This document shows, piece after piece, positions 5,564 through 56,636 of a stretch of DNA of 64,000 nucleotides. The stretch covers positions 1,116,001 to 1,180,000 of the forward strand of contig OZ287078.1 of the NCBI GenBank assembly GCA_965645245.1, given 5' to 3'. Source of the stretch: Massalongia carnosa (lineage: Eukaryota). The notes beneath the pieces are model-generated. The model did not search any database, was not told the DNA's origin, and saw only the letters and a list, made by a program, of their open reading frames with translations. Made by a program: the position numbers and the translations under genes. Numbering within the stretch: the stretch's first letter is position 1; each line of letters opens with the position of its first letter.

Positions 5564-6610
5564 ATGCCTCGCGCCGAGGTAGGCTCTACCAAGTACCTCA
5601 ACAATAAGCTAAAATCGAAGGGTTTACAAAGGCTTCGATGGTATTGCCAGGTAGTTCCAGTTACCTTCTTCATTCACTATCGTAACTAATCCTTTCCTCA
5701 GGTCTGTGAGAAGCAAACGCGAGATGAGAATGGTTTCAAGTGTCACACCCAATCGGAATCACACGTGCGGCAAATGCTACTGGTTGGCGAGGACCCTCGT
5801 AAGCACATTTCGGATTACAGCAACCAGTTCCAGCGCGACTTCCTCCAACTCCTCAGAACTTCTCATGGCGAAAAAAATATGCATATGAACCACTTCTACC
5901 AAGAATACATTTCTAACAAGGAACATATACATATGAACTCAACACGGTGGCCATCTCTGACTGAATTTGCAAAACACTTGGGAAGGGAAGGTCTATGCCG
6001 GGTAGAGGACAATGAAAAAGGACTGCATATTTCCTGGATAGATAACAGTCCAGAGGCTTTGAGGAGACAGGATGCTATTCGGAAGAAGGAGAGGCAGGAC
6101 AAAGGAGATGAAGAGAGGGAACAAAGGCTGATAAAAGAGCAAATTGAGAGGGCAGAACTGGATGCCGAAGAAAAGGCGAATGATAGTGAAGATGATCAAT
6201 TAAGAGCGCTGAAGAGGGAGGAAGGTGAGAAAATCACGCTAAACTTTGGCAACAAACAGAAAGAGGCCAAGAACGCCGTGACCCCTGTCTCATCTACTGA
6301 TGAAGACACCGGTGGTGGTGAATCAACGGGAATGGAGGATGGATTGTTAATTTCACCCTTAGCAGCCATGACGAAAACCTCATCCGAGAAGGTATCCTTA
6401 AAAATAGGCATCAGTAACAAGCCAAAGAACGTGTTCGCTGGAAGAACAAAAAATAATGCATTTGGGATAGTTAAGACAAAATTAAAGGAGGCGCCTAAGA
6501 AACCCATGAGCGAGGCAGAGAGGATTATGAGGGAGGAGATAGATCGAAAGCGGGTACGGGAAGCAAATGGGTTTGTTGGTGTGGGTTCGAAGCGGCAAAA
6601 AGTCTCGTAA
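5564..6610 (+). CDS. RTS2: KIN17/Rts2 zinc-finger DNA/RNA-binding protein
   Basis: MPRAEVGSTK...KSKGLQRLRWYCQ|VCEKQTRDENGFKCHTQSESH C2H2 finger, and HIHMNSTRWPSLTEF of the Kin17 middle domain. One intron at 5651-5701. Confidence 0.92.
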
Positions 6611-6972
6611 AATATGATTGATCTTTGGACATGGAATATGGATGGGTTGGGACTTGAAGCGTGAGAAAGTTTAACAGAAAGCGTCAACAACTCATGACGT
6701 GACACGACTTTTTAAATGCTCTATGACTAGGACAAACTGAGGAGACGATTAATGTCATTTGAATGACAATATATCTGCAATAGTGTATATAACACTTCGT
6801 CATACGTGTCAGAAATGCCGATTAATTGGCGCATTTAATCAGCCCTACAGCTCTAATTTATTTTATCAAGCTGCCACGAAGCATTTTTATTTCCTCCCAG
6901 CTTCTTTTAACGGAACAACAAAACTTGATAGCAATTCATCACATACCATTCTCTTCACTTCTGTATCGTAAT

Positions 6973-8275
6973 ATGGACGACTTCTGGGCAGCTCCTCCAG
7001 TTTCGAGGTTCGTCTTGATGCCTTTTGCTCGCCAACTCTTACAAGCTGCTTTCTCTGATGCTGATGAATAGGACTTTGACAGCTTTGACGCTCTCGACTT
7101 CAGTTTTGGTATACGGTGGCCTTCTTGATGGCTCTCGAGTTGTTTTCTATCTACCTTGGATTTTGAAGTTTCCAATGCCTGAAATATGGCGTTTGGTTAC
7201 CCCGTTCTGGATCACAGGGTCTGGCCTTGGTATTTTATTTGACACCTATTTCTGTAAGTCTCCGATTAATTATCTATGACATATGATGGTAATGGCCATC
7301 AGTATGGACTTACTCAAGTGCCCTGGAGAAGGAATCTCCCCGCTTTGGTCGACCGGGGGATTATTTCACTTACATCAACTTTCTTGGAGCCATAATTTTG
7401 GTAAGTGTAATGATACTCTCTATCTGGCTCTCCTTTCTGTGAAGCATGCCATCATTATGCTTAGTTTCTCTTGTGTTGAGTTACACCTCGCATTATCTGC
7501 CCGCCCAGTCATGCTCTAGCTGAAGCGGTTCCTGGAGACGAGGAAGATCGCCCTTGCATTTCACGTAGGTCCGTCATTCGCAATCAATCCAAAGGGCTTA
7601 CGTGAGGTGTGGGCATGGTGGAAGTGCAATTTGAGAATAAACCTGCGCGATCTTCGGATATTTGTGTATGGTGGTTGGCATTTCCTACAGACCGTCATCT
7701 CATATCAGTTTGTTCCGTGTTGGCTTGCTTCCTAACAGTCTGCCCTACGATCAGGCTAACCATTTCAACAGTTAACAGCTGGTGGTATTCTCCAATCCAG
7801 GGTGCTTTTATCAGGTAACTTCATCTTTGTGTTGTACACAATCCTTGCGCTGACCATTTCAGCACTGATTCTGGGTTTGGCATATACATATTCACAAGAT
7901 AACAAGAACAAAAAGGTTTCGTTTTTTATAATCACTTTTAATGCAATGTGGCTACCATGGGCCATGATGTTGATGACGTTTATAATGGCTGGGCCTGGAG
8001 CAGCTATGGCTCAAGCAACTGGGCTTGTCGCAGCACATCTCTACGACTTCCTTACGCGCCTGTACCCAACCTTTCGGGGTGGAAGAAACTATGTTTCAAC
8101 CCCAAGGTTTGTGCTGCGCTGGTTTGGCGGAGATCGTCCTAACATCCAGTCAAGAGGATATGGGGCTGCGTTCAGGCCTGCGGCTCAACAGCCAGCTCAG
8201 GCAACAACCAGTGGATTTAGTGGTTTTTCGAGTGCTTGGAGCAGGGGTCAAGGGCGACGACTAGGAGGAGACTGA
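6973..8275 (+). CDS. Derlin (Der1/Dfm1 family ERAD membrane protein)
   Basis: MDDFWAAPPVSR, EIWRLVTPF, GLVAAHLYDFL and a C-terminal SHP-like box RGQGRRLGGD. Four introns: ~7008-7071, 7254-7302, 7401-7771 and 7815-7862. Confidence 0.9.
7470..7771 (+). ncRNA. Candidate structured intronic RNA (snoRNA-like) in derlin intron 3
   Basis: The intron is 371 nt, while most introns here are 45-70 nt. A 17-bp helix pairs 7556-7572 with 7594-7610, and another pairs 7491-7504 with 7608-7620. There is a UUCG-capped hairpin at ~7650-7659 and an H-box-like AGAATA at 7634-7639. Ends and identity are uncertain. Confidence 0.5.
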
Positions 8276-8514
8276 ATAGCTGTATATTTATAGAATCCAC
8301 GCTTCATGTTCGATTAGCTATGTTTTTCACCATTACGGAATAGATAATGTCTAAAAAGTAAATGAAATGAATTTGCCTGCAGACACTCAAATACGCACTA
8401 GACCTAAAAGATTAAGTTTTCACACAAAATTTCTAGGACGAAGACGCGAGCTCCACATGCAAATATACACTCATTACCCTGATCATTGCGATTGCGTATT
8501 AAAACAAAGCCACG

Positions 8515-10127
8515 ATGGCTATGGTAGTCGCAAAAGGGGAGGAAGAATACCTCATCAAACCGGAAGCTAGTACTCCAGCTGTTAATACAAGTGACTGGCC
8601 GCTGCTCTTAAAAAACTACAATCAACTGCTTGTCCGCACTGGACATTTCACTCCTATACCCGTGGGATGCACGCCTCTAAAACGTGATCTCAAATCATAT
8701 ATTAGTTCTGGTGTTATTAATCTTGATAAACCCTCAAATCCTTCGAGCCATGAGGTGGTAGCATGGGTAAAGCGCATGCTGAGGTATGTACAGCGGGACT
8801 TTATGTTCATCAAGTACTGAAGCTAAGTGTGAGAAGGATCGAGAAAACAGGGCATAGCGGAACACTCGATCCAAAAGTTACCGGTTGCCTCATCGTCTGC
8901 CTTGATCGTGCTACTCGTCTTGTCAAGTCTCAACAGGGTGCAGGAAAGGAATACGTCTGCGTAATACGCCTGCATGATAAGCTACCTGGCGGGGAAGCTC
9001 AGCTTGCGCGAGCTCTGGAGACACTTACCGGGGCGCTTTTCCAGCGGCCGCCTCTCATTTCTGCTGTCAAGAGGCAACTACGAATACGAACAATCCATGA
9101 AAGTAAGCTCTATGAATTTGACAATGACAGGCATCTTGGCGTCTTCTGGGTGAGTTGTGAAGCGGGAACGTATATTCGAACATTATGTGTACATCTAGGG
9201 CTTTTGTTAGGCGTGGGAGCACACATGCAAGAGTTGCGGAGAGTTAGAAGTGGAGCAATGGACGAGAAGGATGGCATGGTGACCTTGCATGATGTTCTCG
9301 ATGCGCAATGGATGCAGGATAATACGAGGGACGAGTCATATTTACGGAAAGTCATTCGGCCGCTAGAGAGTCTATTAACAACGTACAAAAGAATTGTGGT
9401 TAAGGACAGTGCTGTCAATGCTGTATGTTATGGAGCAAAACTCATGATACCTGGACTACTCAGATATGGTAAGTTGTTCTTAAACATATCATAGCCCTTC
9501 AAGTCTGAACTTCTCTAGAATCCGGCATTGAAGTTCATGAAGAGGTGGTTCTTATGACTACTAAAGGCGAGGCAATAGCCTTGGGCATAGCGCAAATGTC
9601 AACAGTGGAGTTATCGTCCTGCGACCATGGTGTAGTTGCCAAGGTCAAGAGATGCATCATGGAGCGGGATTTATATCCAAGACGATGGGGTCTAGGCCCT
9701 GTTGCGTTAGAAAAGAAGAAGATGAAGTCTGACGGCAAACTCGACGTAAGTCTCGAACTATTTATCCCTGTCAATATATTTTCAATGCTGACCTCTGAAG
9801 AAATACGGGAGAGTAAATGAAGCAACTCCAGCCAAGTGGCAGAAGGAGTACACGGACTTTACTGCACCCTTAGAGAATGGTGTAGCACCACCTTCAGCAA
9901 AGTCTCTAGAACAACCACCCACATCAAATCCTGAGCCTACCAAGGATAACGCGCAAGGATCCTTGCCCAAAGCAGTCGATTCACAGGCGCAAAAAGAAGA
10001 TGGGGATTCAAAGAAGCGGAAAAGGCATGAAGGCGAAACGGCGGAAGAGAAAACAGAACGCAAGAAGAAGAAGAAAGAGAGAAAGGAGAAAAAGAAGTCG
10101 AAAAAGGGGGATTCCGACAGCGAGTGA
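8515..10127 (+). CDS. CBF5: H/ACA snoRNP pseudouridine synthase Cbf5/dyskerin
   Basis: [19 protein letters not shown], the catalytic [14 protein letters not shown] motif, a PUA domain and a lysine-rich tail. Introns at ~8784-8836, 9469-9518 and 9746-9800. Confidence 0.97.
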
Positions 10128-14510: not shown

Positions 14511-14554
14511 TCCATCCATCCATCCATCCATCCATCCATCCATCCATCCATCCA
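14511..14554. repeat. (TCCA)11 microsatellite
   Basis: Perfect tetranucleotide run read directly. Confidence 0.95.
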
Positions 14555-14633
14555 CCGACCCAGAGACACAGATGGACGGACGAATCCCGTTTACTTGGTT
14601 CTACAGGAAGCTTTTGTGGGTGTGTATGTATGT

Positions 14634-23488: not shown

Positions 23489-24718
23489 ATGTCGTCCTTT
23501 CCTGACCAGCCGTTCGACGAGCGTGAACAAGTAAGTCACTTTCTTGAGCTTACGTGACGGCATGAGTCTGCTAGCCCTCCAGATAAGCCATGGACCACGA
23601 AGCTAACGGTGTGATGTTTAACAGCGTTATTTTCTTGCTGAAATTATCAAAGACTTACCAATTGCTCCCTTGGACCTTGTCACAATTATTAAGCAGGTTG
23701 GCATTCAGCCGAGGTGGACGGAGATTGCCTTGCCCAATGGTATGGAGCTGTCTCCTTTGTCCTTGAATCCTCCCTGAATCGAAGAGCGCCTGACTCAAAT
23801 GTTTTGGATGTTGACAGACTCATTGCCACCGGTGACGTGTACAGCCTGCTGATGGAATCTCAACTTTTAGGTCGCTCGGTATCCGCTTGTCAGAAGGCCT
23901 TTGAGCATCTCCTCTCGCGTTCGTCAACCGGCTATCCCATCTCATACCGGCCTGTGGAACCTCCCGAGCCAAAGGCATCACCCCCGAAGCCGAAAAAGCG
24001 TCCCTTTCGCAGTGGTCCCAGCGGTCCTGGTGGCGATGGGGTAATGGCGGTAGACCGGATAATCCAGCCGCGCATCACGGAATTCTCCTCTGTCAATGAG
24101 CCGTACAGTTCTCCTCACCCACCGCCACCACCTGTGGTTGCAGGTGAGCCGCCGAGGAAGAAACGTGGGCGTCCGAGTAAAGCGGAACACGAGCTACGGC
24201 TGGCTGAATACGCTGCACGAGGAGAACCTTATCCCGCGCCAAGGAAGACCAAAACCCCAAGGCAATCTGTCGAAGGATATGCGCCGACAGCTGTAATGTT
24301 CACGGCCGGGGGGCCGGAGATCGCCGAGGGTCCACCGGTTGCGACACCGACCACGATGGAAGTTGGGGAGGCAGGCATCAATTCTCCGGGGAAGCGGCGT
24401 GCGCAACCGGCGGGCGTAGAAACAGGGGCCAGGAACGTCGCGCACGAAGTTGGCGCATCGGGGGCAGATTCAACACAGCATGCACATGAATACGTGGCGA
24501 GGAGCGAAACCAACACACCTGCCGACCGCAGCGCCAGAACCACTTTACCAGAGGCTCGTCCCGGGGAGCTTGGTTACCAGGGAAATCTAATAGCTCAGAT
24601 GCAGGAGCATGCGACACGCGTGGAACCTGACCCCAGGAGAGGAATGGAGACCTCGCAGTCACGACATACTCCAGAGCACCGGGTTTGGGAAGCCTACCAA
24701 CCTCCCACTACAACCTGA
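23489..24718 (+). CDS. Fungal hypothetical nuclear protein with an AT-hook
   Basis: Spliced as MSSFPDQPFDEREQ|RYFLAEIIK...PRWTEIALPNG|RSVSACQKAF, with introns 23531-23624 and 23740-23870. Contains the AT-hook KKRGRPSK and a Pro-rich body. Confidence 0.75.
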
Positions 24719-25407
24719 TCGTTCGGTGGAAAGGAACAGGAGAGAAATCTTAGGTGTGACGACGATTTCATGATACAATGCACACACGGCCAATACGTGG
24801 GTGGATACAGTCCTGTACTTCCGAGCGTTCTTACAATATGCCTTTCACGCCTTTTAAGGAATTGATGATCGTTCAGCATGCGACGGTCATTCTAACATTT
24901 CTGTATTACTAATTGAGATATTTTCTTTCCATATCCGGCACATCCGTGGCTTGGATCTTCTCGATTTCTTGTCGACACTTCGTTGTGTCGACAATTGGGC
25001 TAGCCAAACTGTTTTTTTGGGCTGCTCATTCACGATGTACACCAGCTTTAGCTACAATCCCCATGACACGATGGGGGCTTTCAGACAGCCCTTCTATACC
25101 AAAATTTCCCTTTGTCCTCAAATCCTCTTCTCGTGCCCCTGGCACAATGTACCTTAATGGCAGAACAAGAATATTTCCTCGTTCATGTGTATAGAAGATA
25201 CCCTTGGTGAACATTGTGCACTTTCCTAATAACTTCTTGCAGCCATCTCACCATCCGCATGTCCGCGTCTTCTCCCCATGCTCAATACGGGAATCTGCAG
25301 GCTGGGGGAGGAGGCCATGATATTCGTTCTCGCGCATATAAACCACCTGACCGGGGCATAAATAGATAGGTAGATAGATACCTAGGACCTTTTACGTGTG
25401 TCTCTCC

Positions 25408-25409
<2 letters not shown>

Positions 25410-25467
<58 letters not shown>
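25410..25467. repeat. (GT)29 microsatellite
   Basis: Perfect dinucleotide run read directly. Confidence 0.95.
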
Positions 25468-25470
<3 letters not shown>

Positions 25471-26097
25471 CGTGTGTATGTGTATATGTATGCATGTATA
25501 CCCCACGTAGTTATTTCCCAGCGGCTGCCCACTTACCTACCCTCTTTACCGTGAACGATTGTCGTTCGTTCTCCGGAAAACATCCCTCCAATAGAAACCT
25601 CCCCCCTTCCCCTATCTATATATAGCATGGATTTTTAAGTTACCTACTTCTTTTACTCGCTGCCGGATATCCACGTGGTTGCCCGACCAATCACCACCTT
25701 TGCCTTACGGTTCCCTCGCTGGCCAATGGAGGGCAGAGGGAGGAAAAGGGAAACGAGGAGTTCTCCTTTTTTTTTGCTGACGTAATGGAATTAGGGTAGT
25801 CCATGGCATGGCATAGGTAGGTGGGTAATGTATGTGGAAGGTAGCTAGAATTCTGGGGAAAGGGAGTCGGGTCAATAGATATCTTTTGCCTGCCTGGCTG
25901 CCTGGGGGGTATATTCTCTATCCACATATCCTCCTCCTCCTTTCCTCGAACAAGAGAAAAACAAACCCCCGCATGCATACACACACGCGCGCACGCCCCT
26001 ACACACCAACCCAACCAACGCCATGGAAATATGCCTACGCTCATCAAAACCAAGCCGGAAAAAAAATATGAGAAACCAAACTGTCGGCTCATCACCG

Positions 26098-54405: not shown

Positions 54406-56636
54406 ATGCTCGGCTGGCTTACAGGCTCCTCGCGCCCTGCTGATTTGCGAGATATGCGTAAGGATGGTATGCATACTTCCCGTCGCTGAAATTGCCTGTT
54501 CTTACCTCGCTCTACGTAGAAGATGATGGACAAACGTACTTTGAGGAACCCCCAGAGACACCTGCGCCTCTATTCGCAATTCGAGCTTTCAAAGCTGCGC
54601 TTTTTGGAACCCCACATACTGACCAGGACATACCTCAACCCACTGCACCTTACATGGCGCCCAAGCAGAAAGCTAGGGATCAGGAGTCTTCCCCTCGCGT
54701 GGTGCCTGTGAAAACTCCTAAGCTTCAGCACAAAGTGGATGAGGAAAATAATCCCAAGGCGCGCATGGGGTCGTTGATCTCACCTGCAAAAGGCATACTT
54801 GTGACACCTGGCACTGTAACGACCCGTCGAAAGAATGTGTCATTTGGCGGCCTGGCATTGAACAACGAGGCACCCACCCAAGATTTCAAAAAGCTTCAAA
54901 GATTTGATCTAGCATCAAGTTCGAGCACCTACGATCAAACAGGCGAGGAATCCTTGGTTGAGGCAAAACACATTCAAACAAATCTTACAAAGGCCTTGTA
55001 TAAAGCAAGAATCAGCTCATTAAATGAGCCATTGAACCAAAATGAGGCGGCGAAAACTTCACATGGTAATAGCAACTCTAACAAGTCAAACGAAACCTTT
55101 AACGCCAAGCCCAAAAGCCAAGATGACGTTACTGATCTCACCGCTGATACTACTATTGATCTTAATCAACCTTTCTCCAGGTCTGGACAACACTGGAAAG
55201 CTGAATTTGAGCGATATCACAAGAAGTCTCACCGCGAAATGAAGAAGATTATTAAGCAAGGGCAAAATGTCAAGTCGTTTGCCGCCAAGAAAGATTCGGA
55301 AGCTTCAGAATTAGGCGAAAAACTACGTCGGGAATTATCCAAAGTTGCTACCATGGAGGCTAAGGTCTCTAAATTAGCAGCTCAGCTGGGTAATACCCGT
55401 GTGCAGGACTCGGAGAGTGTGAATCAAGCGAAATTAGTTGACGATCTGGCCAAACAAACAGCTTTAGCAGTTCGATACAAGCAGAAAGCGGATCGGTACA
55501 GACTTGCTCTCCTCAAGAAAACTGCAGCTGTTGCTCTAGCTGAGAACGGCGTGGATACAACCCCCCCAAGGAGTATATCAATACATTCCCAACATGATTT
55601 CGAGGTGGTCCAGCCGAGACTTCTACTACAAGCTGAGCTCGACAAGGTTCAAGAACGCGTAAAGCTTGCCGAAGACAAGGCTCGTAGTCTTGAGAGTGAG
55701 AATATGATCCTAAAAAACAGCCTAGCAAAGCTGAGAGCAGAAGCATCAAGCTATGAGATGAAGCGTCTGGCACGCGAGGAAGCTTCAAAGGAGAAAGAAG
55801 CAGGCATTTTTGCTGTGAAAGAACATTGCGAAGCCCTACTCTCCCAAACAAAACCCGAATACCTAATTTTGAAGAAACAATCAGGCTTGCAGAACGTATC
55901 TCCAGACAAAGTCCAGAATAAAGAAGAAGAGGTCTCGATAACGCAAAGAGAATTCAAGGGGGGCGAGTCACAAGCTATAACGACAGGCCCAGATATTAAT
56001 GTTCCGATGAAGGATTTACCATTTAAGAATGTTCTGAGATCGAAGACGCAACAATCTCATATAGACATCTGGACCCTAAGCGCAAGGCCAGAAGGGTTGA
56101 ATGACACCCTAGTCATAAACCGACGTGCTCCTACCCACGTATCTGAGCTCGGACCTAAAGAAATCACAAACGTGCTCAAGGAACTCGACCAGAACTCGGT
56201 GCCAAAGCAAAGTCCCGACAAAAATTTACCCTCATACTCAACTCCCCCAATTAGGCTTTTCGACAGCCAGCCAAAACAGAACTACCCAACTGATAGTAGC
56301 TTAATAAAGAAAGACCTTCCCCAGAACCTGAACTCCGCAAAACGACCTCTTAGCCTCAATTCCCACCCCGTGCAACCCGCCGCCGCAAAACGGACCCAAG
56401 ACTGTCACACTACTATCTCCTCTCCCCGCCCGTCAATGCTGAGTTTCCCTCCCACCCCCCTCGCCTCTACCATCACAACATCCTCTACATCCAACCAACC
56501 TACTGTGAAACATTTACCCGCCACTTCCCGCACAAGCACCGCTGTAGATGGCGGCGCGAGACGGCATACTTCGCTACCAGCGGAGCGGGTCGCGGCCGCA
56601 AGGGCAAGGTTGAGGGAGAAAGCCGTGAAAAGATAG
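54406..56636 (+). CDS. Cut12-domain (spindle pole body-associated) coiled-coil protein
   Basis: MLGWLTG first exon, intron ~54467-54519. Motifs PETPAPLFAIRAFKAALFGTP, KGILVTPGT..RRKNVSF and TIDLNQPFSRSGQHWKAEFERYH, followed by coiled coils. Confidence 0.8.

Follow-up and report, generated by a model that had tools for sequence, protein, structure and literature searches.

The snR43 family of box H/ACA small nucleolar RNAs (snoRNAs) is known in fungi, and passages of one survey report that the Schizosaccharomyces pombe entry AJ632018 (HACA_9) matches snR43, conserved outside Taphrinomycotina (PMC5824354). Sections of two further sources give the targets of snR43 as the pseudouridines 25S-Psi966 and 5.8S-Psi73 (PMC8307265, PMC5699541). 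Yeast Psi1042 is the site of snR33, and the relevant excerpt on chicken ACA9 describes that RNA as guiding the snR43-equivalent site by its 5' hairpin and the snR33-equivalent site by its 3' hairpin (PMC2653536); snR33, according to passages of the fungal survey, could not be found in Pezizomycotina (PMC5824354). For Neurospora, a survey counted two intron-encoded RNAs among 20 H/ACA snoRNAs, and neither snR43 nor derlin is mentioned in the survey passages. In the literature searched, we found no link between derlin or Der1 and a role as snoRNA host. Here we analyze 64,000 nucleotides (nt) of Massalongia carnosa (assembly GCA_965645245.1, contig OZ287078.1, positions 1,116,001 to 1,180,000 of the forward strand; the whole stretch is hereafter the window), and specifically the third intron of its Der1-like (derlin) gene, which very probably harbors, at 7483-7692 (+), an intron-encoded box H/ACA snoRNA gene, the filamentous-fungal counterpart of yeast snR43 and of S. 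pombe snR100, the RNA that we take AJ632018 to be.

The first-pass annotation of the window, made from the letters alone, had taken this intron for the seat of either an H/ACA-like RNA or a cis-regulatory structure. The former proposal is now favored by the element's layout (hairpin, H box, hairpins, ACA box), by covariation, by homology to snR43 and snR100, by the recurrence of the element in the same intron and by complementarity to known targets.

Relatives of the element in other fungi

Three low-depth contigs from runs X1 and X3 (depth 2-3 vs. 419-879 for the main genome) match the window over 7494-7538 only, and their loose ends have ACACCTCG upstream and GAGGAAGATYRCC downstream in common before they diverge. 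These contigs seem to be other versions of the same snoRNA, and the two runs seem to hold traces of other fungi. A metagenome scan for ACACCTCG and GAGGAAGATYRCC spaced 44-52 bases apart gave at least 120 matching loci, and among the matches listed 18 are true relatives of 7483-7557 and beyond (L006, L016, L019, L022, L029, L033, L039, L064, L069, L075, L084, L087, L089, L092, L093, L102, L109 and L110), four of which duplicate another locus over the compared part. The loose ends of one low-depth contig (record 2) match the L006-type ortholog exactly. About 100 pattern-matching loci (L002, L004, L005, etc.) belong to an unrelated conserved high-GC coding stretch on soil metagenome contigs, mostly with 71 bases between the motif ends.

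With the window's spliced derlin protein as query, tblastn matches were obtained in 16 of the 18 relatives among the matches listed; L019 and L102 had none at E <= 0.01, and L019 equals L022 over the part that they share. Derlin exons lie on both sides of the element in nine loci among the matches listed, where the element follows residue ~105-107, the flanking exon matches are spaced about 275-465 nt apart, and the protein identity is 35-61% (matches other than very short terminal ones). Wherever a listed locus has sufficient flank, the element occupies this one intron of the derlin gene, so these alignments place it in the orthologous intron of distant fungi.

The conservation check that the first-pass annotation had suggested came out in favor of its RNA proposal: over the snoRNA segment, identity to the orthologs is 67-78%, compared to 32-44% in the shuffled control (standard deviation (SD) 14-17), whereas exon 3 (50-69% vs. 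50-55%) and the intron flanks (47-72% vs. 34-57%) remain within about 1.5 SD of their controls. Judged by this comparison, the element is the sole part of the region that is clearly conserved at the DNA level.

Structure and covariation

A covariance model built on a three-hairpin structure from 13 orthologs, with the window left out (model R1), finds a single match in the window, at 7479-7697 (+), which is full length and scores 164.2 bits (E 4.2e-41). The same model recovers five of five held-out family loci, the full-length ones with 160-192 bits, and gives no match in 43 unrelated loci that fit the search pattern. In the alignment of 14 sequences that includes the window (A1), the three-hairpin model comprises 39 pairs and is 87.5% paired, compared to 37-43% for slid controls. 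Both sides change in 19 of the 39 pairs, and none of 500 shuffles reaches any of the four measures, so that the covariation test proposed in the first-pass annotation likewise supports a conserved RNA structure. The middle hairpin (hairpin 2) contributes most (12 of 19 pairs with changes on both sides), followed by the basal stem of hairpin 3 (4/7) and the upper stem of hairpin 1 (3/8); the basal stem of hairpin 1 is invariant, with no such changes, and is largely fixed by the search pattern.

The 17 contiguous pairs noted earlier at 7556-7572 / 7594-7610 are real and constitute this middle hairpin. Twelve are Watson-Crick and five G-U, and the helix lengthens by three pairs, to 7553/7613. On the + (transcribed) strand each of the five wobbles reads G-U; the opposite strand would have A-C mismatches there. 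UUCGC in the loop is invariant in the 14 sequences. The helix that had been proposed to enclose the middle hairpin does occur in the minimum-free-energy fold (7487-7506 with 7611-7635) but finds no support in covariation (76.9% paired; two of 18 pairs changed on both sides; 469 of 500 shuffles as good), and it also conflicts with hairpins 1 and 3. A long-range pairing suggested by RNAalifold between columns 19-22 and 202-205, i.e., between two invariant guide strands, was judged an artefact of the conserved guides.

Taken alone, the intron beats chance only weakly: folded as a whole, it gives z = -0.93 (equalled by 18 of 100 shuffles), the minus-strand fold z = +0.62, and the core at 7485-7645 z = -2.73 (2 of 200 shuffles as good). 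The significance of the element stems from cross-sequence comparison rather than from the single sequence. The window contains other non-repeat stems of 16-18 base pairs (bp) with G-U allowed, e.g., at 55509-55573 and 24040-24132 (minus strand); the former, on the minus strand, has 18 bp and a 29-nt loop and matches the derlin-intron helix in length. Repeats produce further apparent stems: a long (GT)n microsatellite grading into GTAT-type repeats (25407-25501) dominates the + strand stem scan, and a low-complexity tract at 14511-14585, with ATGG tetranucleotide repeats opposite a TCCGTCCATC-type stretch, yields apparent 18-bp stems on the minus strand.

The predicted anatomy is given in Table 1. 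The ends of the mature RNA were set by the start of homology (5') and by the ACA box plus 3 nt (3', 7692). Across A1 the H box reads AGAUUA in 10 of 14 sequences, AGAUCA in two and AGAUCG in two (the window and L109), i.e., it is canonical in 12 of 14, although the search pattern admitted no base other than A or G as the sixth. ACA stands in the ACA box of 13 of 14 sequences, with AUA in its place in L109. Several pieces that the first-pass annotation had singled out find another place in this structure. AGAATA at 7634-39 is present but belongs to the 5' pocket strand of hairpin 3 and is not an H box. The ACA triplets at 7735 and 7768 exist too, but the actual ACA box is another, farther upstream. 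The side hairpin at 7525-51, seen in the minimum-free-energy fold, combines the H box with the 3' half of hairpin 1, and the C(UUCG)G loop, seen in the same fold, is the apex of hairpin 3. As for the words compared with the m1 and m2 motifs of snR30/U17, both stand where they had been located, but ATTTCCTA (7680-87) is made up of the 3' strand of a basal stem and the initial A of the ACA box, and AACCAT (7758-63) lies outside the RNA and overlaps a motif resembling a branch point, for which the fungal consensus is CTRAY.

Table 1. Coordinates of the predicted snoRNA, its parts, its host gene and the adjacent CBF5 gene within the window.
Feature	Position	Strand	Details
Predicted mature box H/ACA snoRNA, snR43/snR100 family	7483..7692	+	~210 nt; from R1, A1 and covariation
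Hairpin 1 with predicted pseudouridylation pocket	7486..7543	+	Basal stem 7486-7490 / 7539-7543; upper stem 7501-7528
Hairpin 1 predicted guide strands	5' 7491-7500; 3' 7529-7538	+	
Predicted H box, AGAUCG	7545..7550	+	From A1; corresponds to AGAUAA in the hinge of the Rfam snR43 consensus
Hairpin 2 (middle hairpin)	7553..7613	+	Loop 7573-7593; holds the 17-bp helix; from covariation
Hairpin 3	7620..7685	+	Basal stem 7620-7627 / 7678-7685; predicted pocket strands 5' 7628-7640, 3' 7673-7677
Hairpin 3 upper stem	7641-7672	+	UUCG-containing apical loop; from single-sequence folds
Predicted ACA box, in conserved CCUACA	7687..7689	+	14 nt past the start of the 3' pocket strand
Host gene, Der1-like (derlin), five exons	6973..8275	+	Exons 6973-7008, 7073-7253, 7303-7400, 7772-7814, 7863-8275
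Intron 3, snoRNA host	7401..7771	+	371 nt, GT...AG; flanks around the snoRNA 82 nt (5') and 79 nt (3')
CTAAC, likely branch point	7756..7760	+	11 nt upstream of the 3' splice site; from sequence only
CBF5, H/ACA pseudouridine synthase, 5' part	8515..9479	+	Pfam TruB_N, TruB_C_2, PUA; start codon 8515

Family assignment

The link to snR43 comes from the orthologs. Searching 14 related loci against Rfam at E <= 10, we obtained alignments to the whole snR43 model (1-207 of 207) for L109 (27 bits, E 0.042) and L016 (21.9 bits, E 0.76), both below the gathering score of 60, and snR100 matches of 16-21.5 bits, below the gathering score of 80, for L093, L019, L022 and L102. The blocks that the Rfam alignments share are colinear: CAC..CUC, UCUGCC and GUUC come first, then the GAGAAGAU hinge and a long middle hairpin, and lastly GGUGG with an AUA/ACA box at the end. 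Because the gathering score is not reached, we call the element a homolog and predicted functional equivalent of snR43 and not an Rfam-defined member of the family.

Predicted ribosomal RNA targets

Ribosomal RNA (rRNA) sequences were taken from eukaryotic ribosomal DNA contigs that contaminate bacterial assemblies, identified by their LR5 and ITS3 primer sites, and four large-subunit rRNA (LSU) contigs were confirmed as LSU_rRNA_eukarya by Rfam. Short contigs with eukaryotic LSU, 5.8S or small-subunit rRNA (SSU) primer-site matches occur as contamination in many bacterial and archaeal assemblies (L121-L290). A sarcin-ricin motif scan for the 3' part of the LSU gave archaeal 23S, with no overlap with the fungal LSU.

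The pockets were scanned against every U in LSU 1-2130 and in 5.8S, with no preselected sites. For hairpin 1, the top site is UCCCUCAGGA[U]AGCAGAAGC in all eight lineages, with 5+6 bp of pairing (7+6 bp in L093). On a Saccharomyces-like contig (L153) this U is position 966, counted from GUUUGACC, and all ten yeast pseudouridine positions that we checked from tables fall on a U in the same numbering. The pairing base next to U966 lies 15 nt before the H box, and the target ~15-16 nt upstream of it. Hence, the 5' pocket probably guides pseudouridylation of LSU U966. 5.8S U73 is a weaker fit to this pocket (5-6+3 bp).

The best candidate target of hairpin 3 is GACCUU(A/G)ACC[U]AUUCUCAAAC, i.e., LSU U1039, with 7-8 + 5-6 bp, the first base to pair lying 14 nt upstream of the ACA box. 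This fit requires 2-3 unpaired guide bases adjoining the upper stem and is found in five of eight lineages (not in L075, L016 or L019), with small margins in L064 and L069. Directing the 3' pocket to U1042 instead would require 19 nt between target and ACA box as well as a guide far from the upper stem, a non-canonical geometry, and we also dropped a mapping of the chicken sites 1699/1701 onto U1039/U1042, since the spacing varies between taxa. In view of Psi1042 close by in yeast, of the two sites listed for ACA9 and of the reported lack of snR33 in Pezizomycotina, a double guide for U966 and U1039 is attractive yet unproven.

The loop of the middle hairpin may also meet the LSU. UCAUUCGC (7574-7581) is complementary to LSU 999-1006, and in 14 of 14 orthologs the longest Watson-Crick complement of the loop within LSU 1-2113 falls in segment 994-1007, which lies between U966 and U1039. 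Most orthologs pair over 7-9 bp at 999-1005/7, L016 over 10 bp at 994-1003, and L019 and L102 over 8 bp at 997-1004; the register differs by clade with complementarity kept, the clade without the 5' extension having gained a 3' extension. Chance alone yields runs of 6-9 nt on rRNA-like contigs that are unrelated, and the two clades amount to two independent observations (the SSU-like contigs L253 and L248, which are AT-rich and of unconfirmed fungal origin and Rfam identity, served as chance control only). Pairing of the loop with LSU 994-1007 is a tentative proposal, and so is the wider idea, to which we attach similarly low confidence, that the RNA contacts LSU domain II at three points (U966, the loop segment and U1039). 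Three such contacts would clamp ~75 nt of precursor rRNA, as a folding chaperone or a coordinated double guide might do. This idea would also predict a pseudouridine at the U1039 equivalent, a position unlisted for yeast, in the region usually served by snR33.

Host gene and neighborhood

The spliced derlin reading frame is open for 257 codons, with the junction of exons 2 and 3 set by eye to 7253/7303 (there is an in-frame stop otherwise). Exon 5 matches Pfam DER1 (PF04511, E 5.5e-16), and exon 2 searched alone gave no Pfam match. The remaining three introns of the gene have 64, 49 and 48 nt, which bears out the earlier remark that the snoRNA-bearing intron is oversized; it is probably large because an RNA gene must fit inside it. 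In the intron fold, the 5' splice-site bases 7402-7414 pair with 7450-7462 in a ~13-bp helix upstream of the snoRNA, a stretch with no clear conservation in the orthologs. No splice joints were seen over 6400-9100 in the contigs of four runs, which are DNA-like and silent on expression. Contigs of X1-X3 match the window exactly and may be its source. The fourth run, X4, shows identical low-depth pieces that include the unspliced edge of intron 4 and behaves as DNA for that reason.

The neighboring gene had been identified as CBF5, and its Pfam domains agree (Table 1); in the window it lies in tandem, downstream of the host gene. CBF5 also adjoins the host gene in L006, L033 and L064, but upstream and divergent, and it was absent from the 2.5-kb flanks of L075, L069 and L016/L039. 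The linkage is recurrent but rearranged, and inherited synteny explains it as well as function does.

Alternative explanations

Several observations weigh against a working snR43-type RNA at this locus and have to be set beside the evidence above. No Rfam family reaches its gathering score on the window or on the related loci, and the search of the window that the first-pass annotation had called for returned no H/ACA family: there was no match at the gathering threshold, none that was relevant at E <= 10 over 6900-8400 or 7470-7700, and no snR43 match even at E <= 10 with 231 bases searched. The sole match in the window scans, 16.8 bits to TeloSII_ncR45 on the 17-bp helix, was judged meaningless. 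The window's H box fits ANANNA at five of six positions, the last being G and not A. With 8 + 13 bases fixed in the search pattern, the invariance of ACACCTCG and GAGGAAGATYRCC, and in part that of hairpin 1's basal stem, holds by construction, and the sample is confined to relatives that share these bases, to the exclusion of more divergent ones. Further, the pocket scan covered the LSU up to position 2130 and 5.8S, and the top site of hairpin 1 exceeds its runners-up by a narrow margin (scores of 10.5-12 vs. 8-10), so that the target argument rests on agreement with the known snR43 site.

The H box and the blindness of the Rfam snR43 model to the window copy are what one might expect of an snR43-type descendant that is decaying or inactive in this genome, having lost the last conserved A of its H box (AGAUCG). 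We regard such decay as unlikely, given that the window copy retains its guide strands, its ACA box and each of the three hairpins, and that the window's score against the ortholog model falls inside the range of full-length held-out orthologs. In addition, L109 belongs to a second lineage with the same G in its H box, which means that the variant has persisted.

Less probable still, and in our estimate very improbable, is that the structure acts mainly in cis on the derlin precursor messenger RNA (pre-mRNA), in splicing or host expression, with no stable trans-acting RNA. That distant fungi have kept the element in one and the same intron of a single host gene would suit such a role, as would the 13-bp helix that engages the 5' splice site in the fold. 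However, a purely cis-acting element would have no need of the snoRNA layout with box-to-pocket distances of 14-16 nt, of a bipartite match to a published snR43 target, or of homology to snR43 and snR100, and the intron flanks beside the splice sites are not conserved. Finally, an ordinary long intron with a chance hairpin, or an inserted mobile element, for example an introner-like one or a miniature inverted-repeat transposable element (MITE), is already refuted as far as present data reach, since the ordinary whole-intron fold, the stems of similar length elsewhere in the window and the low-depth contigs with different flanks that match 7494-7538 in two runs are outweighed by strong covariation, by relatives that sit at the orthologous derlin position in other fungi and are not scattered, by the absence of a second copy from the 64-kb window, and by loose ends of those contigs that match metagenome ortholog types.

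Other identities were considered and set aside. A MITE with ACACCTC/GAGGTGT ends shows no target-site duplication, and orthology argues against it; no C box of a C/D box snoRNA was seen by eye; a thiamine pyrophosphate (TPP) riboswitch had no Rfam match on either strand; and no transfer RNA was found by an ARAGORN scan. A coding exon within the intron was prompted by a stop-free frame from 7483 to ~7600, yet the copies differ by 1-2-nt indels.

Discussion

Our results favor an snR43-type box H/ACA snoRNA carried by a derlin intron. Under this model, the RNA would be transcribed within the derlin pre-mRNA, freed by exonuclease trimming of the spliced intron, and shielded by the Cbf5, Nop10, Nhp2 and Gar1 proteins; its 5' pocket would then pair on both sides of LSU U966 and bring about the isomerisation of that base to pseudouridine. 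If so, an unannotated snoRNA has been missed by the Rfam thresholds here and in at least 13 other fungal sequences, and the pairing of an snR43-type RNA with the same intron of its host has been kept while the host protein diverged to 35-61% identity. The oversized derlin intron would be explained by its resident RNA gene. The model also predicts rRNA modifications for filamentous fungi, at LSU U966, at 5.8S U73 and possibly at U1039, and allows for an accessory rRNA-pairing loop in an H/ACA snoRNA.

How the element compares to described systems depends on the system. Introner-like elements of fungi are oversized, structured introns, with many near-identical copies in different genes of a genome; the derlin intron differs from them in being single copy in the window and positionally orthologous, with only its central 210 nt conserved. 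snR30/U17, which carries its m1 and m2 motifs on opposite strands of an internal loop in the 3' hairpin, is a box H/ACA RNA too, and the intron has loose m1/m2-like words, but these lie outside the internal loop of the 3' hairpin, and there was no snR30/U17 match in Rfam at E <= 10 on the window regions or the 14 related loci.

The vertebrate ACA9 (SNORA9), which we compared by table description, has several features in common with the element: both RNAs are intron-encoded, and ACA9 is listed for the equivalents of the snR43 site (5' hairpin) and of yeast Psi1042 (3' hairpin), the 5' pocket here fitting U966 and the 3' pocket the neighborhood of 1042 (U1039). ACA9 is a plain two-hairpin RNA, and the 3' site predicted here is U1039 and not 1042, with 2-3 unpaired guide bases beside the upper stem. 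Within fungi, S. pombe snR100 (Rfam RF01449) aligns over the first hairpin, including the basal stem, CUUUCUGCC, GUUCUGGUGA and the AGAUUA H box, but with sub-threshold scores and with the 5' hairpin alone.

The closest counterpart is Saccharomyces cerevisiae snR43 (Rfam RF01256). The two differ in that the best orthologs of the element reach 27 and 21.9 bits, far short of the gathering score (60), and the window copy gives no match, in that the 3' pocket strands depart from the Rfam consensus, and in that the window copy is hosted by a derlin intron, yeast snR43 being presumably an independent gene. Nevertheless, the likeness covers the three-hairpin layout with a full-length colinear alignment in two orthologs, a 5' pocket with UCUGCC and GUUC in common beside the upper stem, and a hinge with an AGAUNA-type H box; and the predicted targets, LSU U966 and 5.8S U73, are the published targets of snR43.

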